IMG/VR virus record: IMGVR_UViG_3300045988_094645
From: a virus
Direction: 5' to 3' (one strand)
DNA: 57,970 bases
In this document: piece after piece, positions 3,669 through 16,092 of the stretch
Position numbering within the stretch: position 1 is the stretch's first letter
Layout: each line of letters starts with the position of its first letter
Notes under the pieces: model-generated
The model's database searches: none
Seen by the model: the letters and a program-made list of their open reading frames with translations, nothing else
Told to the model about the DNA's origin: nothing
Position numbers and translations under genes: made by a program

Positions 3669-4283
3669 TCAAGGTATTGCTCGTATTAATTCTAAAGTTT
3701 TTTCATACCCATATTTAGAAATTAATCGAGTAGTTTCTCGAGTAATTTCTTCTCGATTCTTTAGCATTAAAAGGGTATTTTGTTCTTCTGTCGCCCATCT
3801 TAGATTCTCTAATCTATTATCTGTTCTGATTCCATTAATATGGTCAACTACCTTAGTTTCAAAATCCTCAATAGGGTTAAAAGTTTGCATAACAAGACGA
3901 TGAATTCTAACTGATTCACCACCGATTAATTCAGTTTTTAAATATCCATCCGAAGTCATAGAACCTTTAACTAGAGTTTTAGAATCCTTTTTTCTTACTC
4001 TTCCAAGATTAGAAACTTCGTGCTTGTTGGAACAGTAAGCGGTTTTCCAAATTTCTCCGGGGAGGGATTCCGCAATTTCAGATTTTCGAGTAGAAAAAGT
4101 AGAAGAATCAATAATCTAAGGAGAAATTTCTTTTACTTCATATATAGCTTTTGCTCCTACTCCTTGTTTTGAAATAAGATAGCCTTTTTTTGCTTGATTT
4201 GATGCAAATTTAGGAAAGTTAGTTGTAACGGTAGATTTAGAAGCATGGAAAAATTCAAGTAGTTCGTCAAGATTAAAAGTCAT
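3669..4283 (-). CDS. HNH homing endonuclease (NUMOD4-like N-terminus plus HNH/AP2-type core), ~204 aa; needs read-through of one in-frame TAG
   Basis: rc translation from ATG at 4283 (RBS GGAGG): ...KEISP[TAG]IIDSSTFSTRKSEIAESLPGEIWKTAYCSNKHEVSNLGRVRKKDSKTLVKGSMTSDGYLKT...HRLV...VDHINGIRTDNRLENLRWATEEQN. The NUMOD4 motif EIWK...VSNLGRVR lies between the TAG and the supplied ORF start with no alternative ATG. Confidence 0.6.
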
Positions 4284-4371
4284 TTTAAATACCTCCTTTG
4301 TTTCTATTATATATTAAAAATTCGGAAATGTCAATTAACCGTTTTAGTCCGAATTTTTCCGATTGAATTAT

Positions 4372-4394
4372 AAAGAGGGCCGAAGCCCTCTTTA
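4372..4394. terminator. bidirectional terminator AAAGAGGGC-cgaa-GCCCTCTTT; a near-identical copy lies at 7066-7092
   Basis: perfect stem flanked by A/T tracts. Confidence 0.55.
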
Positions 4395-4395
4395 A

Positions 4396-4647
4396 TCAAG
4401 TCTTTTCGATAAATCCAATGGTGCTAAAGTTTATATTATTGTAGCCAATGGAGAATTCGTTCTCAGAATTATAAAATGTAATAGCGCCGTATTCTTTCGT
4501 ATAATCGCAAATTGCGTTTACAACAGCATCCCATTTTCGTTTTCTATCTATTTGTTTTCTTGCTTGCATTTCTTTTTCACAAGCGGAAAGAAGATATTGC
4601 AAAGTTTCATCATTCATTTCCGCAATATTAAATCCAGAATTATCCAT
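4396..4647 (-). CDS. hypothetical protein (83 aa)
   Basis: supplied ORF; TGA stop; terminator downstream. Confidence 0.4.
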   Translation of the reverse strand: MDNSGFNIAEMNDETLQYLLSACEKEMQARKQIDRKRKWDAVVNAICDYTKEYGAITFYNSENEFSIGYNNINFSTIGFIEKT

Positions 4648-4664
4648 CTTAAAATCTCCCTTCT

Positions 4665-5113
4665 TTATTTGAAAATCTCGGTTGGAATTTCATTGAAAAC
4701 TTGCTTGAATTGTTCCATAGTAAGCTCTTTTGCCGCTCTCTCAACCCTTTCTTTTGACCAGTCGCAGACCATTTCACAGGAGATAAACTTGATTCTATAT
4801 CCGATAACTCTATAAATTTTAGGCGACCATCTAAATTTCCCGTCCGCCATATTTCCAGTGAAAATTATAAAATCGCCCGTGGCTCGTCTTTCTTCTGATT
4901 GTTTAAGCTGATCTTCTGCTATCTCTAAGGCATATTTTTCTCCGGTTTTAATGGCATCTTCTTCTGTTCTAGTATTGATAAAGAAGGTAGAACGCATAAA
5001 ATCATCTTGAAACGATACTGTAAACCAATAGGGCCTCTTGAAGAAAATTCCTTTTCGCCCCTCACAGTCAAAGGTAATCCGAAAATCAACTCGAAACTTC
5101 TTCAAACTCTCCA
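4665..5113 (-). CDS. hypothetical protein (~149 aa; likely start MESLKKF at 5113 with GGGAGG RBS; the longer supplied ORF runs into the promoter)
   Basis: supplied ORF 4665-5183; minus promoter TTGACA-17-TGgTATTAT at ~5130-5165. Confidence 0.4.
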
Positions 5114-13338: not shown

Positions 13339-13668
13339 TTAATGGTATAATTGATATTTCTTCCCAATTTTATCAATCTCCTCAGCTTCCATTGGTCTAA
13401 ATCCAATACAAGTGAGAGTCCCTTCAGGACTCTCTTTTTCCAGCTCTGTCCTGCAAGCATCATAAATCAAAAAGTAATCATGGAATAAGTCTGTATCGAG
13501 ACTTATATCCATATGATACATAATGCCATCTCTTTCCCGAACCACTTCTTTGCTTCCCCAAAGAATCTTTTCCAAAAGAAAAGCAATAGAAGCATGGGAA
13601 ACTTGCGCAGCTAGCTTACCCGGAGACATATTTAAATCTTTTCTAGCTATAATTAACTGTTTATACAT
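13339..13668 (-). CDS. pth2: Pth2-family peptidyl-tRNA hydrolase (109 aa)
   Basis: MYKQLIIARKDLNMSPGKLAAQVSHASIAFL matches the PTH2 N-terminal signature (vvRtDL.MgkGKiaAQcsHAa). Confidence 0.55.
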   Translation of the reverse strand: MYKQLIIARKDLNMSPGKLAAQVSHASIAFLLEKILWGSKEVVRERDGIMYHMDISLDTDLFHDYFLIYDACRTELEKESPEGTLTCIGFRPMEAEEIDKIGKKYQLYH

Positions 13669-14417
13669 TCTTTACCTGCTTTCAAAAATGCTTTAAAATT
13701 TTGGGAGTTGCGGTCAGGAATTGCAAAATAAATATTTGGAATATTATAATTGCGGGCTGTGTCTATGAGCAAGGTTGCGACCGTATACGGATCTTGCATA
13801 AAAACTCCACAGCCCCAGGCTCCCGCGATTAGATTTTCCACACCGTTTTCCTTGGCAATTTGATACATAAAGTGAATTCGATCTTCAAGAACTCTATCAT
13901 TCTCGCTTTTACTCACGTTCTGGTATCTATGCGCCGTTCGGAAATTCGGGGCCGCGCAAGTTATAACATCTACTTCCTTTTGTTTGTCATTCCGCTCGAA
14001 TACTACACTAGGAGAATACAGCGCTCTATTCAAATATAAAGCCTTATTTAACCTCTGCCGATTCCATGCATAATATGTTCCATCAAAAGCAAGAAGGATA
14101 GGGTAAAGATTAGATTCATGACAAAGAGCCTCTTCCTGCGCGGGACTGCCTTCTAGGAAGAAACCGCCAGGACTTTTATAACTGGCATAGTTAAGAATTG
14201 CTGTTCTACCATTATCAGATAAATTGAATAGGCAAGATACACTATCCATATCCGTTAGAGTAAAAGCTGATTTCTGATTGCCGGATTCGTGCTGTGTAAA
14301 AGAATCTGGGCTATATACATATGTGCGATCAATAGATAACTTAGTATTTGCGGCAAGTCTAGTTTTAATATCTTCATAATGCGCTCGTGCCTTGATTGCG
14401 CGCTCTTGTTTTGTCAT
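13653..14417 (-). CDS. bacterial-type poly(ADP-ribose) glycohydrolase-like macrodomain protein (DUF2263/TIGR02452), 254 aa; overlaps pth2 by 16 nt (operon)
   Basis: catalytic signature GGG-x6-8-QEE present as SPGGFFLEGSPAQEEALCHESNLY. Confidence 0.55.
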   Translation of the reverse strand: MTKQERAIKARAHYEDIKTRLAANTKLSIDRTYVYSPDSFTQHESGNQKSAFTLTDMDSVSCLFNLSDNGRTAILNYASYKSPGGFFLEGSPAQEEALCHESNLYPILLAFDGTYYAWNRQRLNKALYLNRALYSPSVVFERNDKQKEVDVITCAAPNFRTAHRYQNVSKSENDRVLEDRIHFMYQIAKENGVENLIAGAWGCGVFMQDPYTVATLLIDTARNYNIPNIYFAIPDRNSQNFKAFLKAGKECINS

Positions 14418-14616
14418 CGCGGCCTCCTTTTATAAAAATGCCATTGGGCAAAATTAAATAATTGTCTTATTTTATTTTTCAAATAAAGTGTGTTGAGTTT
14501 TTAATTCCTCGATCTTCTACTTTAACTCTTTGTTTTCTTTTATTACTTTTGCATATTCGCATGAATCATCGCATCTAATTGGATCATACTATTGATGCAA
14601 TCTAAGATAACAATAA

Positions 14617-15009
14617 TCAATGCATGGGTTCATATTTACACCCCTTTATTCTACAATCTAGTAAACACTGTCCTGTAGCTCCATCACAGGGAATTGCATC
14701 AGGGTAATCCTCAAAATAAGACGAAGCTAATAGGACTTCATACCCGAGTTCTCGCAATATTCTTTCTGCGATATATCTATTCCTCAGCTTTACCCATTCT
14801 TCTCTATTTATTTTTGTTTCTCTGTATATTTCTCTGGATTTCTCCATATCTACTGTTATGCTGCCATCAATATTAGTCTTAAATGTTGAATCCTGTGTAC
14901 GATAAAATTCTCGAAAAGGATTTTCAATATGAAGAACCTCTCTAGCATAATTATCAAAATCTTCTGAGAATTTCATTATCTTCGCGCCTGTTTCGCTAAC
15001 TATAAGCAA
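14617..15009 (-). CDS. hypothetical protein with Cys-rich C-terminus (130 aa by supplied ORF; may extend upstream through an in-frame TAG)
   Basis: supplied ORF; upstream in-frame ...RRGGIID[TAG]IGVDEK precedes the TTG start. Confidence 0.35.
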   Translation of the reverse strand: MLIVSETGAKIMKFSEDFDNYAREVLHIENPFREFYRTQDSTFKTNIDGSITVDMEKSREIYRETKINREEWVKLRNRYIAERILRELGYEVLLASSYFEDYPDAIPCDGATGQCLLDCRIKGCKYEPMH

Positions 15010-15128
15010 TTTTTCATCAACCCCAATCTAGTCAATAATCCCACCCCTCCGGGCACAGGAGTTGACCACACTTCATTTCTCTTTGCAATATCTTCAAGTT
15101 CAACAAAATCGCCTTGAATAAAATTCGC

Positions 15129-15767
15129 CTAATTTCTACGAATACCAACATCAACAACAATAGCGTGAGGGCAAGCCTCTCTTGTCAAAGTAAAATCTCC
15201 AACTGCGGATACTACTAAATCTGCTATTCTTGCTAAATAAAGCTTCGCATTTACATTTGTTTTACTGTGACAGATAGATACAGTCATATTTCTCGCCAAC
15301 AACTCTTTCGCCATTGGCTTACCAACTATATTACTTCTACCTAATATTAAAGCACTTTTACCTTCATACTTAAAACCACAGTCATCAAGATAGTCTACTA
15401 TTCCTCTTACCGTTGCCGGTAAAACAAGAGTAGAAGAAGTTAAACCGTCGCAGTCTTTTATCGTAGGAATTACATCAATAGAAAAAGAACTCAATGAATC
15501 TCTTAGTGGCATTTGTGCTATAATACAATCAGTATCTATACTATTTATGTAATTATTTAAATCTGCGGGAGTCCAGTGTTCTGGAACTTTAATCACGCTT
15601 ACTGGCCATCCTAATTCATCAAAGTCGTCTACTTTTTTCTATATATAAATCTAATTTCCGGCATCCCCGTTAGTTGCATCAATTATGGTCAATGATGGCT
15701 TGACATCGGACTGCCGCAATTCATCTTTCTATTGTTTAAAATATTCTTTTATGTTAATCTATTGCAT
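15129..15767 (-). CDS. folD: FolD-like bifunctional methylenetetrahydrofolate dehydrogenase/cyclohydrolase (~212 aa) with five in-frame TAGs in the N-terminal part
   Basis: supplied ORF 15129-15596 contains GKSALILGRSNIVGKPMAKELL...VSICHSKT...ADLVVSAVG...IVVDVGI. Upstream in frame: ...TIIDATNGDAGN[TAG]IYI[TAG]KKVDDFDELGW..., where the first TAG aligns with the conserved Gln of the FolD motif PASQIYV. Confidence 0.6.
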
Positions 15768-16092
15768 CTGGTTCTAGCCCCCATGGATCATCAGTATCAT
15801 AATCAATCATATCATAGAATGATATTTTGTTATTAGGCGTTATTTCTAAAACCTAATGTGGGATACAACATATTTCATAATCAGAATCTCTATCTAAATT
15901 ATATGAAGCATAAATATGTAAAGCTGTTGGTCTTGCATTATTGATATTTTGAATGTCCCATAAGTCAACAGTGTTTTTATGTCCAAGTATGTCTGTTAGA
16001 ACTTCTGGCTATACTGCTATGCTTATAATTAAAATGTTAAAGTAATACTATGCTCGTTTTGGTAATTCAGAATAGGGTGTATCGAAAAACAT
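15754..16092 (-). CDS. hypothetical protein (~112 aa) with three in-frame TAGs
   Basis: ATG at 16092 preceded by GGAGG; MFFDTPYSELPKRA[TAG]YYFNILIISIAV[TAG]PEVLTDILGHKNTVDLWDIQNINN...IPH[TAG]VLEITPNNK... ends TAA and overlaps the folD start. Confidence 0.35.

Follow-up and report, generated by a model that had tools for sequence, protein, structure and literature searches.

What joins the many small genes in one arm of a gut phage genome, and why does the same intergenic segment recur between them? The question is raised by positions 3669-16092 (hereafter, the block) of a 57,970-nucleotide stretch from the IMG/VR virus record IMGVR_UViG_3300045988_094645 (the whole stretch analysed, hereafter the window). 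We conclude with reasonable confidence that the block, in a phage of the human gut with TAG as a glutamine codon, is the hyperplastic early and accessory arm, built of promoter-gene-terminator cassettes, many of them joined by a tripartite module (a 27-nt hairpin, a pair of short boxes and a promoter) that serves autonomy, co-regulation and exchange. Gut phages with a recoded stop codon are common, nearly all of them are uncultured, and their control of transcription is poorly known; the block provides a sequence-searchable regulatory grammar for one clade of them, composed of TG-extended host-type promoters, a shared, putative 32-bp operator and a hairpin with a predicted insulating role.

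The arrangement suggests a mechanism. Host RNA polymerase would transcribe the cassettes early, because their promoters are of the sigma-A type, the late operon opens with a phage sigma gene and the core of the block is translatable before suppressor tRNA. The module would make each cassette transcriptionally autonomous, with the 27-nt hairpin and its T-run acting as a second, insulating terminator behind the gene's own so that neighbouring cassettes are insulated from one another. The boxes would be recognised together, as a single site, by one sequence-specific protein; the centre of this site would lie near -60 or be displaced upstream by one or two turns of the helix, and a dimer or tetramer bound at about -60 would modulate a subset of promoters and thereby place that subset under one common regulator. 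Short conserved stretches of the module, above all the hairpin, would be the sites of cassette gain, loss and exchange, with recombination between short imperfect repeats moving the cassettes. A phage recombinase of relaxed fidelity is a possible mover.

The genetic code of the phage determines how its genes are read. The window is phage DNA with a GC content of about 0.33, and the standard code gives just 33 open reading frames (ORFs) of at least 120 amino acids across 58 kb. Counting TAG as a sense codon raises the summed length of stop-to-stop ORFs of at least 100 codons from 29 kb to 71 kb and reveals a contiguous operon of long ORFs on the plus strand at 16181-54513, the longest of 2899 amino acids with 103 TAGs, whose products include a phage sigma factor, terminase, portal, capsid-like and virion proteins. 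The 26 late genes carry 302 in-frame TAGs (23.9 per 1000 codons), and none terminates in TAG; the in-frame TAGs of the structural genes, resolved when TAG is read as sense, are the pattern that defines code-15 phages. The GC-rich middle of the block is TAG-free, with no TAG in about 2300 codons of 21 ORFs, 2 of which end in TAG. At two TAG positions of the ORF at 10280-10720 the homologues in three related loci (L002-L004) have glutamine, a small sample, and TAG is probably decoded as glutamine in this phage (code 15). In short related loci the recoding test is not decisive, their early regions holding few long ORFs. The preliminary description of this DNA had missed the sense reading of TAG, which alters both the gene map and the meaning of 'early': several ORFs, among them the one at 10280-10720, described there as AbrB-like, are open only if TAG is sense.

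Several features of the recoded map deserve separate mention. The two TAG-terminated early genes, 9661-9885 and 12449-12826, would lengthen under suppression to 192 amino acids (into the reading frame region of the HAD-like gene) and to 141 amino acids, respectively. Structural genes at 23479-25838, 28983-30377 and 31935-32465, which look highly expressed, are free of TAG. Two back-to-back divergent host-type promoters lie at 16126-16190, the rightward one reading the sigma-factor gene 16209-17266 (phrog_5767), and in the 98% identical relative a 770-bp TAG-recoded gene, assigned by eye as a GIY-YIG endonuclease, sits exactly between them (L001 9205-9974). Since the sigma-factor gene has nine in-frame TAGs, production of sigma and hence late transcription would depend on TAG suppression. 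With TAG-free cassettes beside TAG-containing genes, including a sigma factor behind a host-type promoter, the proposed link between the code switch and the early-to-late transition becomes testable.

A relative 98-99% identical to the window is 114 kb long, so the window represents about half a genome. No GenBank phage matched the block in megablast, and there is no nucleotide-level similarity to Phass-1, the closest described phage, whose capsid-like protein is 51% identical. The closest database relatives are Phass-1 and large phages of Enterococcus, Bacillus and Mammaliicoccus, with capsid-like identities of 26-56%, and the host of the window phage is probably a member of the Clostridia.

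Anatomy of the module and its box pair

The recurring segment of about 125 bp that the preliminary description had pointed out is real, as are its partial copies near 5.2, 7.0, 11.5 and 13.0 kb (Table 1). Over 123 nt the segments 8456-8578 and 9911-10033 share 89% identity; the first of these is taken as the reference copy, to which 5138-5260 has 65% identity, and sub-families of repeats link 5199-5256 with 11520-11577 (74%) and 6999-7023 with 8520-8544 and 9975-9999 (80%). Read in the direction of transcription, on the minus strand, the module consists of a 27-nt GC hairpin, two boxes and a promoter. A full module begins 16-33 nt past the canonical terminator of the upstream gene, its boxes begin 13-20 nt past the hairpin, and the -35 hexamer follows the proximal box by 8-9 nt; in a second module type the -35 starts about 29 nt from the box and a conserved TTCTCCCGAAA element lies between. 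Every module copy contains a predicted TTGACA/TTGCAA-17-TGnTATTAT promoter. Relatives with a sigma-factor gene 59-98% identical to that of the window show the same order of hairpin, boxes and promoter.

The hairpin is the most uniform part of the module. Its form is CGGnnnGC...GCnnnCCG followed by A(A/G)TTTT, and in an unbiased scan for hairpins of any stem length all module hairpins, including the six copies in the window, are exactly 27 nt, against 15-34 nt for ordinary terminators. RNA folding predicts two independent strong hairpins at module junctions (z-scores -3.5 to -5.0). In a set of 26 distinct hairpins drawn from the window and related loci, compensatory changes occur in nine of ten stem pairs, and the share of paired cells is 90% as against 68% in shuffles, although the copies were collected with a filter on outer-stem pairing, so that this covariation is partly circular and mainly backs the inner pairs and the constant length. 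Neither the hairpin nor the module corresponds to a known RNA family: Rfam at gathering thresholds gave no match in the window.

Predicted promoters and terminators are concentrated in the block. We judged the number of strong promoters (TTGACA-16/18-TATAAT, at least 11 of 12 positions) against the late block, and that of a laxer scan against its own shuffles. The 12.5-kb block has 11 strong promoters, 10 on the gene strand, all with a 17-nt spacer and 9 with a TG extension; the 38-kb late block has 6, 3 per strand and none TG-extended. The laxer scan returned 74 promoters where shuffles lead one to expect 51.6 +/- 5.4, and terminator-like sites number 30 compared with 15.1 +/- 4.5 in shuffles.

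The boxes are strongly confined to intergenic DNA of the block. Against shuffled intergenic sequence, the comparison that the preliminary description had proposed, the 8-mer TTGTGCAA/TTGCACAA occurs 10 times in 3128 nt of block intergenic DNA versus 0.19 +/- 0.42 in 500 dinucleotide shuffles (maximum 2), and it is absent from 9577 nt of block coding DNA. On either strand, TTGTGCAA occurs 11 times in the window (1.59 expected), 10 of these within 5178-13041, and the pair TTGCACAA-N16-TTGTGCAA with up to two mismatches occurs 6 times (0.03 expected), always within 6975-13065. Among 49 pairs from the window and 21 related viral loci, 41 have a spacing of 16 nt. Of 34 cases, 20 have 8-9 nt between the proximal box and the start of the -35, 5 have 18-19 nt and 2 have 29 nt; each increment corresponds to a turn of the helix, which puts the centre of the site near -60, -70 or -80. 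The consensus of the extended half-site is GnCAwkTTGCACAAAwTT, and the full extended site of 44 bp reads GGCATTTTGCACAA-N16-TTGTGCAAAATGCC. Fixed spacing and helical phasing are the behaviour of a protein-binding site and bear out the earlier suggestion that the inverted motif is bound by a regulator; the part of that suggestion which tied it to the AbrB-like or the ribbon-helix-helix (RHH) protein of the window is unsupported, as discussed below.

The site is conserved across a clade. The box pair is present in 17 other viral contigs, often between divergent consensus promoters. The genes downstream are diverse and mutually unrelated, which marks the site as a general attribute of one class of promoters instead of an operator by which a single gene regulates itself. 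Loci bearing the motif share early genes with the window: relatives of the exonuclease-like gene (window 7457-8281) occur in 12 groups, those of 6167-6568 and of the HAD-like gene 9168-9632 in 8 each, and AbrB/MraZ-like genes in 5. Phass-1 has nine copies of the 8-mer, including one perfect pair, all at 126.7-134.9 kb beside homologues of window early genes; elsewhere there is one copy in its first 50 kb and none in 90-126 kb. The possibility that the boxes are promoter elements of the phage sigma factor was rejected: the site is symmetric, is absent from the late operon and has a spacing incompatible with a -35/-10 pair.

Candidate binders and the role of the hairpin

Which protein would bind the box pair? 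From the sequences at hand, a factor of the host and one of the phage appear about equally likely, each short of an even chance. In the first case, a serious but tentative possibility, the pair would be the site of a transcription factor of the host (Clostridia), copied by the phage either to tie part of its early transcription to the physiological state of the host or to draw the factor away from host promoters by titration. When one genome per bacterial species was scanned for the exact pair at 16-nt spacing, it turned up in at least 120 genome stretches, mostly of gut Clostridia (Oscillospiraceae, Acutalibacteraceae, Ruminococcaceae and Lachnospiraceae). Only 4 of 120 stretches among the matches listed share any protein with the phage loci, and we accordingly rejected the view that these are prophages of related phages. 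At no fewer than 10 host loci an extended half-site, TTGTGCAAAAT(G/C)AC, precedes a predicted TTGACA-16-TATAAT promoter by 6 nt, and this half-site (TTGTGCAAAATGAC) is identical to that of the 5.2-kb copy in the window. The promoter at these host loci reads a conserved ORF of about 43 amino acids among housekeeping neighbours (LigA, acyl-CoA synthetase, SpoIIIAA-like). Because gut Clostridia without the AbrB-like and RHH genes of the phage have the extended site ahead of a small gene on their chromosomes, a host factor is at least as likely as one of the phage.

Other features of the host matches fit less well. Chance alone would give about 140 pair matches in 596 Gb, and the figure of at least 120, a lower bound, does not measure enrichment. 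The matches are heterogeneous, six lying between a TetR gene and an aminotransferase gene and some inside coding sequence, and their geometry (6 nt and a 16-nt spacer) differs from that in the phages (8-9 nt and a 17-nt spacer). We know of no Firmicute regulator motif that matches: among the sites of Spo0A, CodY, CcpA, Rex, LexA, Fur/PerR, TnrA, BirA, CIRCE, the DnaA box, parS, ComA, AraR and the sigma-54 promoter, none to our knowledge fits both sequence and arrangement, and the literature on the 8-mer yielded only primers and unrelated sites.

The host loci form a recognisable set in their own right. Twelve of them (L026, L048, L064, L074, L080, L091, L106, L108, L110, L111, L113 and L123) combine the operator pair, in some cases with an extra box, the 6-nt gap, the TTGACA-16-TATAAT promoter and the ORF of about 43 amino acids, which follows the pattern ..KLIKEI..KFSFKKL.KVIELDAL.. 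and, like its regulator, is without annotation. A search for a conserved neighbouring regulator at these loci was negative, only the small ORF being conserved, and that ORF has no Pfam match. The occurrence of this putative operator before a small gene on the chromosomes of gut Clostridia is a pointer to the clade of the host, and it supplies a 32-bp bait for finding the regulator.

Equally tentatively, a regulator encoded by the phage may use the box pair as its operator and so shut off or tune the class of early promoters, the candidates being the winged-helix protein of 6167-6568, the AbrB/MraZ-like protein in 10280-10720 and the RHH protein of 971-1114. Early promoters throughout a clade of related phages have the site as a general feature. 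The gene at 6167-6568 stands behind a three-box site and four tandem promoters; the AlphaFold2 model of its product (mean predicted local distance difference test score (pLDDT) 88.7) has N-terminal helices and a C-terminal winged helix, with PerR, ArsR, MarR and Z-alpha as top matches in the PDB, albeit with weak Foldseek E-values (about 3e-3), and its family, often with paralogues, is the one found in 8 motif-bearing phage groups. AbrB/SpoVT-like genes recur in motif-bearing loci, and the RHH protein matches Pfam RHH_1 (E = 1e-8). With its TAGs, the AbrB-like gene of the window would be producible only after the code switch, a timing that would suit an early shut-off factor; its homologues in L002-L004, however, have no TAG. 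No phage candidate is present in all motif-bearing loci, which are incomplete, and none occurs in the host loci that bear the same extended site. Co-occurrence of a candidate with the motif does not discriminate either, since all loci were fetched by the motif and are incomplete. For the AbrB-like and RHH proteins, which the preliminary description had put forward as binders, we find no specific link to the motif, and the host loci with the same extended site are without these phage genes.

A wider proposal, which we consider doubtful, unites these strands: the 32-bp site would be the operator of an uncharacterised factor common to the chromosomes of gut Clostridia and to a clade of TAG-recoded gut phages and, separately, the 27-nt hairpin would be a structure-specific cassette boundary that drives exchange. 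If this is true, one host or host-mimicking regulator would gate the early-promoter class in many uncultured phages.

The role of the hairpin raises a parallel question. What had been described as the GC hairpin of an ordinary terminator is a second hairpin, fixed at 27 nt, that belongs to the module and marks apparent recombination junctions. It is possible, though unlikely, that it is not primarily a terminator at all. It might instead lead or stabilise the 5' end of a transcript, give rise to a very small RNA, belong to an R-loop or an origin, or be recognised by a structure-specific recombinase, as attC sites are in integrons. Its fixed length, conserved ends (CGG...CCG) and free but compensated interior exceed what an intrinsic terminator needs, and a good terminator already stands 16-33 nt upstream of it, which makes it redundant. 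Furthermore, in four loci of distant phages (L005, L008, L017 and L021) the hairpin starts 3-8 nt past the -10 of a consensus promoter, a poor fit to a pure terminator, and there it may have a 5' leader or other structural role. Against this, every hairpin copy in the window lineage has 5-7 T in the next 10 nt of the gene strand and no promoter reading into it, we saw no dedicated recombinase in the window, and Rfam offers no match. A predicted role in termination and insulation remains our preferred assignment for the window lineage.

Two further points concern the hairpin. In L021 (700-3150) it lies between two convergent promoters with an operator pair before each, a palindromic super-structure of about 190 bp, and the copy at 813 would give an RNA of just about 35 nt. 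We also considered and rejected the idea that the hairpin mimics a CRISPR repeat as an RNA anti-CRISPR: copies within one genome differ in sequence yet keep their pairing, and no conserved repeat handle follows.

Cassette differences among close relatives

Whole cassettes differ between the window and its close relatives, for which we used IMGVR_UViG_3300045988_093451 (L001/L012, 98-99% identical), the ENA assembly L142, Logan ERR13956148 (L153) and L144. Relative to L012, the window has an extra 1582 bp at 3643-5224 that holds the HNH gene and the ORFs 4396-4647 and 4665-5114. The empty site in L012 contains a single hybrid 27-nt hairpin, in which the upstream flank and left arm correspond to the 5.2-kb copy and the right arm and downstream flank to the 3.6-kb copy. 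Conversely, at the 9.9-kb module L001 has 2053 bp that are missing from the window; this insert is bracketed by two module copies that share a 50-nt overlap (9963-10012), and within it are four genes, including one for a SpoVT-like regulator, and two additional variants of the module. The independent ENA assembly L142 shows the same 2.05-kb arrangement, and L153 has a different insert of about 1.6 kb at this position, likewise flanked by two module copies. The window's own 9.9-kb copy has a chimeric look, with a hairpin that corresponds to one L001 module, then 20 nt that correspond to the 8.5-kb copy and a remainder that corresponds to another L001 module.

L153 also lacks two stretches of the window, 3673-4522 (including the P4334-HNH cassette) and 8575-9141 (P9111, two genes and a terminator), each of which runs from a canonical terminator to the next 27-nt hairpin; at the site of the second, the terminator of the HAD gene directly abuts the hairpin. 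Between L153 and the window, the block at 4523-8574 is 89.6% identical and the flanks 97-98%, and the step falls at hairpin 8574. In L144, whose late genes are about 82% identical, the 11.5-kb module is 88.8% identical while the flanking genes reach 66-76%. Every cassette junction between the window and two near-identical genomes thus lies at a hairpin or a terminator, and whole-cassette differences between genomes otherwise 97-99% identical substantiate the mosaic acquisition proposed earlier. In L153 (1440-3110, compared with L001 700-1200) the N-terminal AbrB domain of the SpoVT-like gene is swapped for a different AbrB-domain gene, and the old C-terminal, GAF-like part is left as an apparently non-coding remnant.

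That the modules are mere paralogous promoter duplications, with cassette differences arising by illegitimate recombination or assembly error and falling at modules only because intergenic DNA tolerates breakpoints, is improbable: neutral indels do survive in intergenic DNA, the comparison genomes are all short-read metagenome assemblies, and each of the two cassettes that L153 lacks has a terminator, and not a second hairpin, next to it on one side, but such events fit poorly with a hybrid hairpin whose arms match both flanking window hairpins, a bracketed insert with a 50-nt overlap that recurs in an independent assembly, an identity step from 97% to 89.6% at a hairpin, or a module more conserved than the genes around it.

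The reading of the block as an arm of exchangeable, module-joined cassettes nevertheless has to be weighed against several points that run counter to it. Assignments of promoters, terminators and timing come from sequence features. Some cassettes are without the full module, the class-A promoters 4334, 8344, 9111, 9683 and 12906 having neither hairpin nor boxes. Covariation in the hairpin is partly circular and, as noted, the hairpins of distant phages sit just downstream of promoters. ARAGORN found no tRNA, including a suppressor tRNA(CUA), within the window, about half of the genome. Repeated modules could cause mis-joins in metagenome assemblies, although exact repeats are at most 50 nt and one arrangement was recovered twice. 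Finally, indels survive mainly in intergenic DNA anyway, which makes their coincidence with modules weaker evidence than the hybrid hairpin.

Features of the block and comparison with known systems

Table 1 Features of the block and its borders in window coordinates; promoters and terminators are predicted.
Feature	Position	Strand	Details
27-nt GC hairpin CGGGCCGCGCAGGGATGTGTCGGCCCG closing the block	3635-3661	-	right-hand junction of the 3643-5224 cassette block
HNH/NUMOD4 endonuclease cassette	3669-4334	-	consensus promoter 4306-4334; gene 3669-4283 (1 in-frame TAG); bounded by terminator 4372-4393 and hairpin 3635-3661
Module 5.2k	5138-5260	-	hairpin 5230-5256; one box 5178-5185; 9 nt; promoter 5140-5168 (TTGACA-17-TGgTATTAT)
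TAG-free gene behind four tandem promoters	6167-6568	-	GC 0.56; candidate DNA-binding regulator
Four-promoter tandem array	6618-6920	-	6892-6920, 6792-6820, 6714-6742, 6618-6646; repeat families D2, D3
Module 7.0k	6963-7051	-	hairpin 7025-7051; three boxes 6999-7006, 6975-6982, 6963-6970
Module 8.5k (reference copy)	8456-8578	-	hairpin 8548-8574; boxes 8520-8527, 8496-8503; 9 nt; promoter 8458-8486 (TTGCAA-17-TGgTATTAT)
Cassette of two genes	8575-9141	-	promoter 9083-9111; genes 8885-9034 and 8621-8857; terminator 8599-8613
Module 9.9k	9911-10033	-	hairpin 10003-10029; boxes 9975-9982, 9951-9958; promoter 9913-9941
TAG-containing ORF (3 TAG)	10280-10720	-	C-terminal ~77 aa AbrB/MraZ-like; two genes in relatives, Gln at the window's TAG
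Module 11.5k	11440-11577	-	hairpin 11551-11577; box 11498-11505 and degenerate partner; promoter 11440-11468
Box pair 13034-13065 (1 mismatch)	12976-13065	-	promoter 12976-13004; no 27-nt hairpin; second promoter 12878-12906 follows
AT-rich multi-gene unit (5-6 genes)	13339-16154	-	promoter 16126-16154
Genes of the 13339-16154 unit	15754-16092 (3 TAG); FolD 14976-15797 (7 TAG); 14617-15009; PARG-like 13653-14417; PTH2 13339-13668	-	
Divergent promoter 16162-16190 and phage sigma-factor gene	16162-17266	+	9 in-frame TAG; first gene of the recoded late operon
Canonical terminators of the genes themselves	4372-4393, 5279-5298, 5681-5708, 6133-6159, 7068-7093, 8599-8613, 9139-9161, 10061-10081, 10781-10802, 11110-11138, 11610-11641	-	5 (5.3k, 7.1k, 8.6k, 10.1k, 11.6k) lie 16-33 nt upstream of a module hairpin

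By our reading of these features, the block comprises about 12 transcription units for 27 ORFs. The earlier claim that almost every gene has its own promoter and terminator is thus overstated, and its core stands in that the units are largely self-contained, each with promoter, gene or genes and terminator. The jumps in base composition that it reported are evident, per-gene GC ranging from 0.30 to 0.56 (for example, 0.56 at 6167-6568, 0.49 at 7457-8281 and 0.32 at 3669-4283). ORFs in 5305-6107 have no promoter of their own. A second class of promoter has an A/T-rich upstream tract and no hairpin or boxes (4334, 6646, 6742, 6820, 8344, 9111, 9683 and 12906) and corresponds to repeat families D2, D4 and D5. 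Of 20 block ORFs searched, 16 gave no significant Pfam match.

Several local features complete this inventory. The ORFs 5305-5660 (a T5orf172-domain protein) and 5712-6107 (an unknown protein) have no apparent ATG, GTG or TTG start, and in each an ATA codon lies a few nucleotides past a good ribosome-binding site. The PTH2-type peptidyl-tRNA hydrolase at 13339-13668, a neighbour of FolD (7 TAG) and a microbial-type PARG, has 109 amino acids against 145 in the 98% relative, with blastn gaps of about 105 and 138 nt, and may be decaying. Between the early block and the gene at 2488-2961, an ORF-free, AT-rich stretch of 600 bp (3027-3627) contains six copies of the palindrome CCGATCGG, which occurs 7 times in the whole window (0.2 expected), as well as repeated TTTTATAATAAAAA-like tracts; it may serve as an origin, in packaging or as an array of protein-binding sites. 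At the opposite end of the window, a diversity-generating retroelement occupies 55656-57970 on the minus strand, with a reverse transcriptase (55656-56873, phrog_1423, YMDD motif) and an ORF at 57315-57809 that is Avd-like by eye and has no significant Pfam match. Its template repeat (57182-57246) and variable repeat (57905-57969) are 77% identical, the differences inspected by eye sit at template adenines of the coding strand, and the target gene extends beyond the window end.

How does this system relate to those already known? Binding sites of the phi29 p4 type and class I activator sites consist of short inverted boxes about 15-16 bp apart upstream of the -35, often between divergent promoters. 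The window resembles them in geometry only, centres at about -60, -70 and -80 indicating dependence on the face of the helix; its box sequence is unrelated, and no p4 homologue was found. Many window promoters are already consensus, and activation would therefore not be needed.

Integron cassettes are bounded by the imperfect attC palindrome, in which structure is conserved instead of sequence. A boundary palindrome with conserved structure is common to both systems, but we see no integrase, attI site or common Pc promoter, and no tyrosine recombinase among the window ORFs searched; unlike integron cassettes, those of the window have promoters of their own, and their junctions resemble homologous exchange between repeats.

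Morons of lambdoid phages, as described by Hendrix and colleagues, are defined by expression from the repressed prophage and by benefit to the lysogen. Like them, the window has extra genes, often of different base composition, inserted with their own predicted promoter and terminator between genes that are adjacent in relatives, and P4334-HNH and P9111-8885/8621-T8599, both absent from L153, follow this insertion pattern. Unlike morons, the window units lie in an early arm of lytic type and are linked by a shared module. The term used in the preliminary description thus finds no support in its strict, prophage-expressed sense: among the ORFs examined in the window, about half of a genome of some 114 kb, there is no integrase, repressor or lysogeny module.

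Phass-1 (OQ749652.1), a human-gut phage of the 'Caudoviricetes code 15 clade', has a Eubacteriales (Clostridia) host according to the prediction of its authors (PMC10607447). With this phage and other code-15 phages the window shares a human gut source, TAG as sense in structural genes and TAG-free genes of early type. A model for stop-codon-recoded gut phages holds that recoding times late gene expression (bioRxiv 10.1101/2021.08.26.457843). Phass-1 carries a suppressor tRNA in a long tRNA array elsewhere in its genome, and the window has none. Neither the module nor the operator is mentioned in the accessible part of the Phass-1 article (PMC10607447).

The closest counterparts are the promoter-early stem-loop (PeSL) cassettes of T4-type phages (Arbiol et al. 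2010, PMC2839356; Comeau et al. 2014, PMC4122927). In both, an intergenic motif of about 100 bp is repeated, combines a strong early promoter of the sigma-70 type with an upstream GC stem-loop (a terminator in PeSLs; here promoter and terminator are both predicted) and is concentrated in a hyperplastic region of small genes of unknown function. In both, two motifs flank a cassette in one genome and a single chimeric motif marks the empty site in another (PMC2839356, PMC4122927), and PeSL crossovers have been mapped in or beside the stem-loop (PMC2839356, PMC4122927). For promoter and terminator activity and for excised mini-circles, the likeness of the window to PeSLs is at the level of sequence.

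The differences are equally clear. Whereas PeSLs in the narrow sense belong to T4-type myoviruses, the window phage represents an unrelated code-15 gut lineage, distantly related to Phass-1, in which we see no T4 core genes; its host is Gram-positive-like and its promoters have TG-extended -10 elements. Its hairpin is fixed at 27 nt and is additional to each gene's own terminator, and its module, unlike PeSLs as described, bears a palindromic operator pair. The window nevertheless displays the repeated motif of about 100 bp, the promoter predicted within it, the hyperplastic region of small genes and the motif-bounded indels with a chimeric empty site, so that accessory-gene shuffling of the PeSL type, so far described just in T4-type phages, is now seen in an unrelated phage of Gram-positive-type gut bacteria. 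The system of the window works like a PeSL without being one, and is best described as a PeSL-like modular system with a conserved operator.

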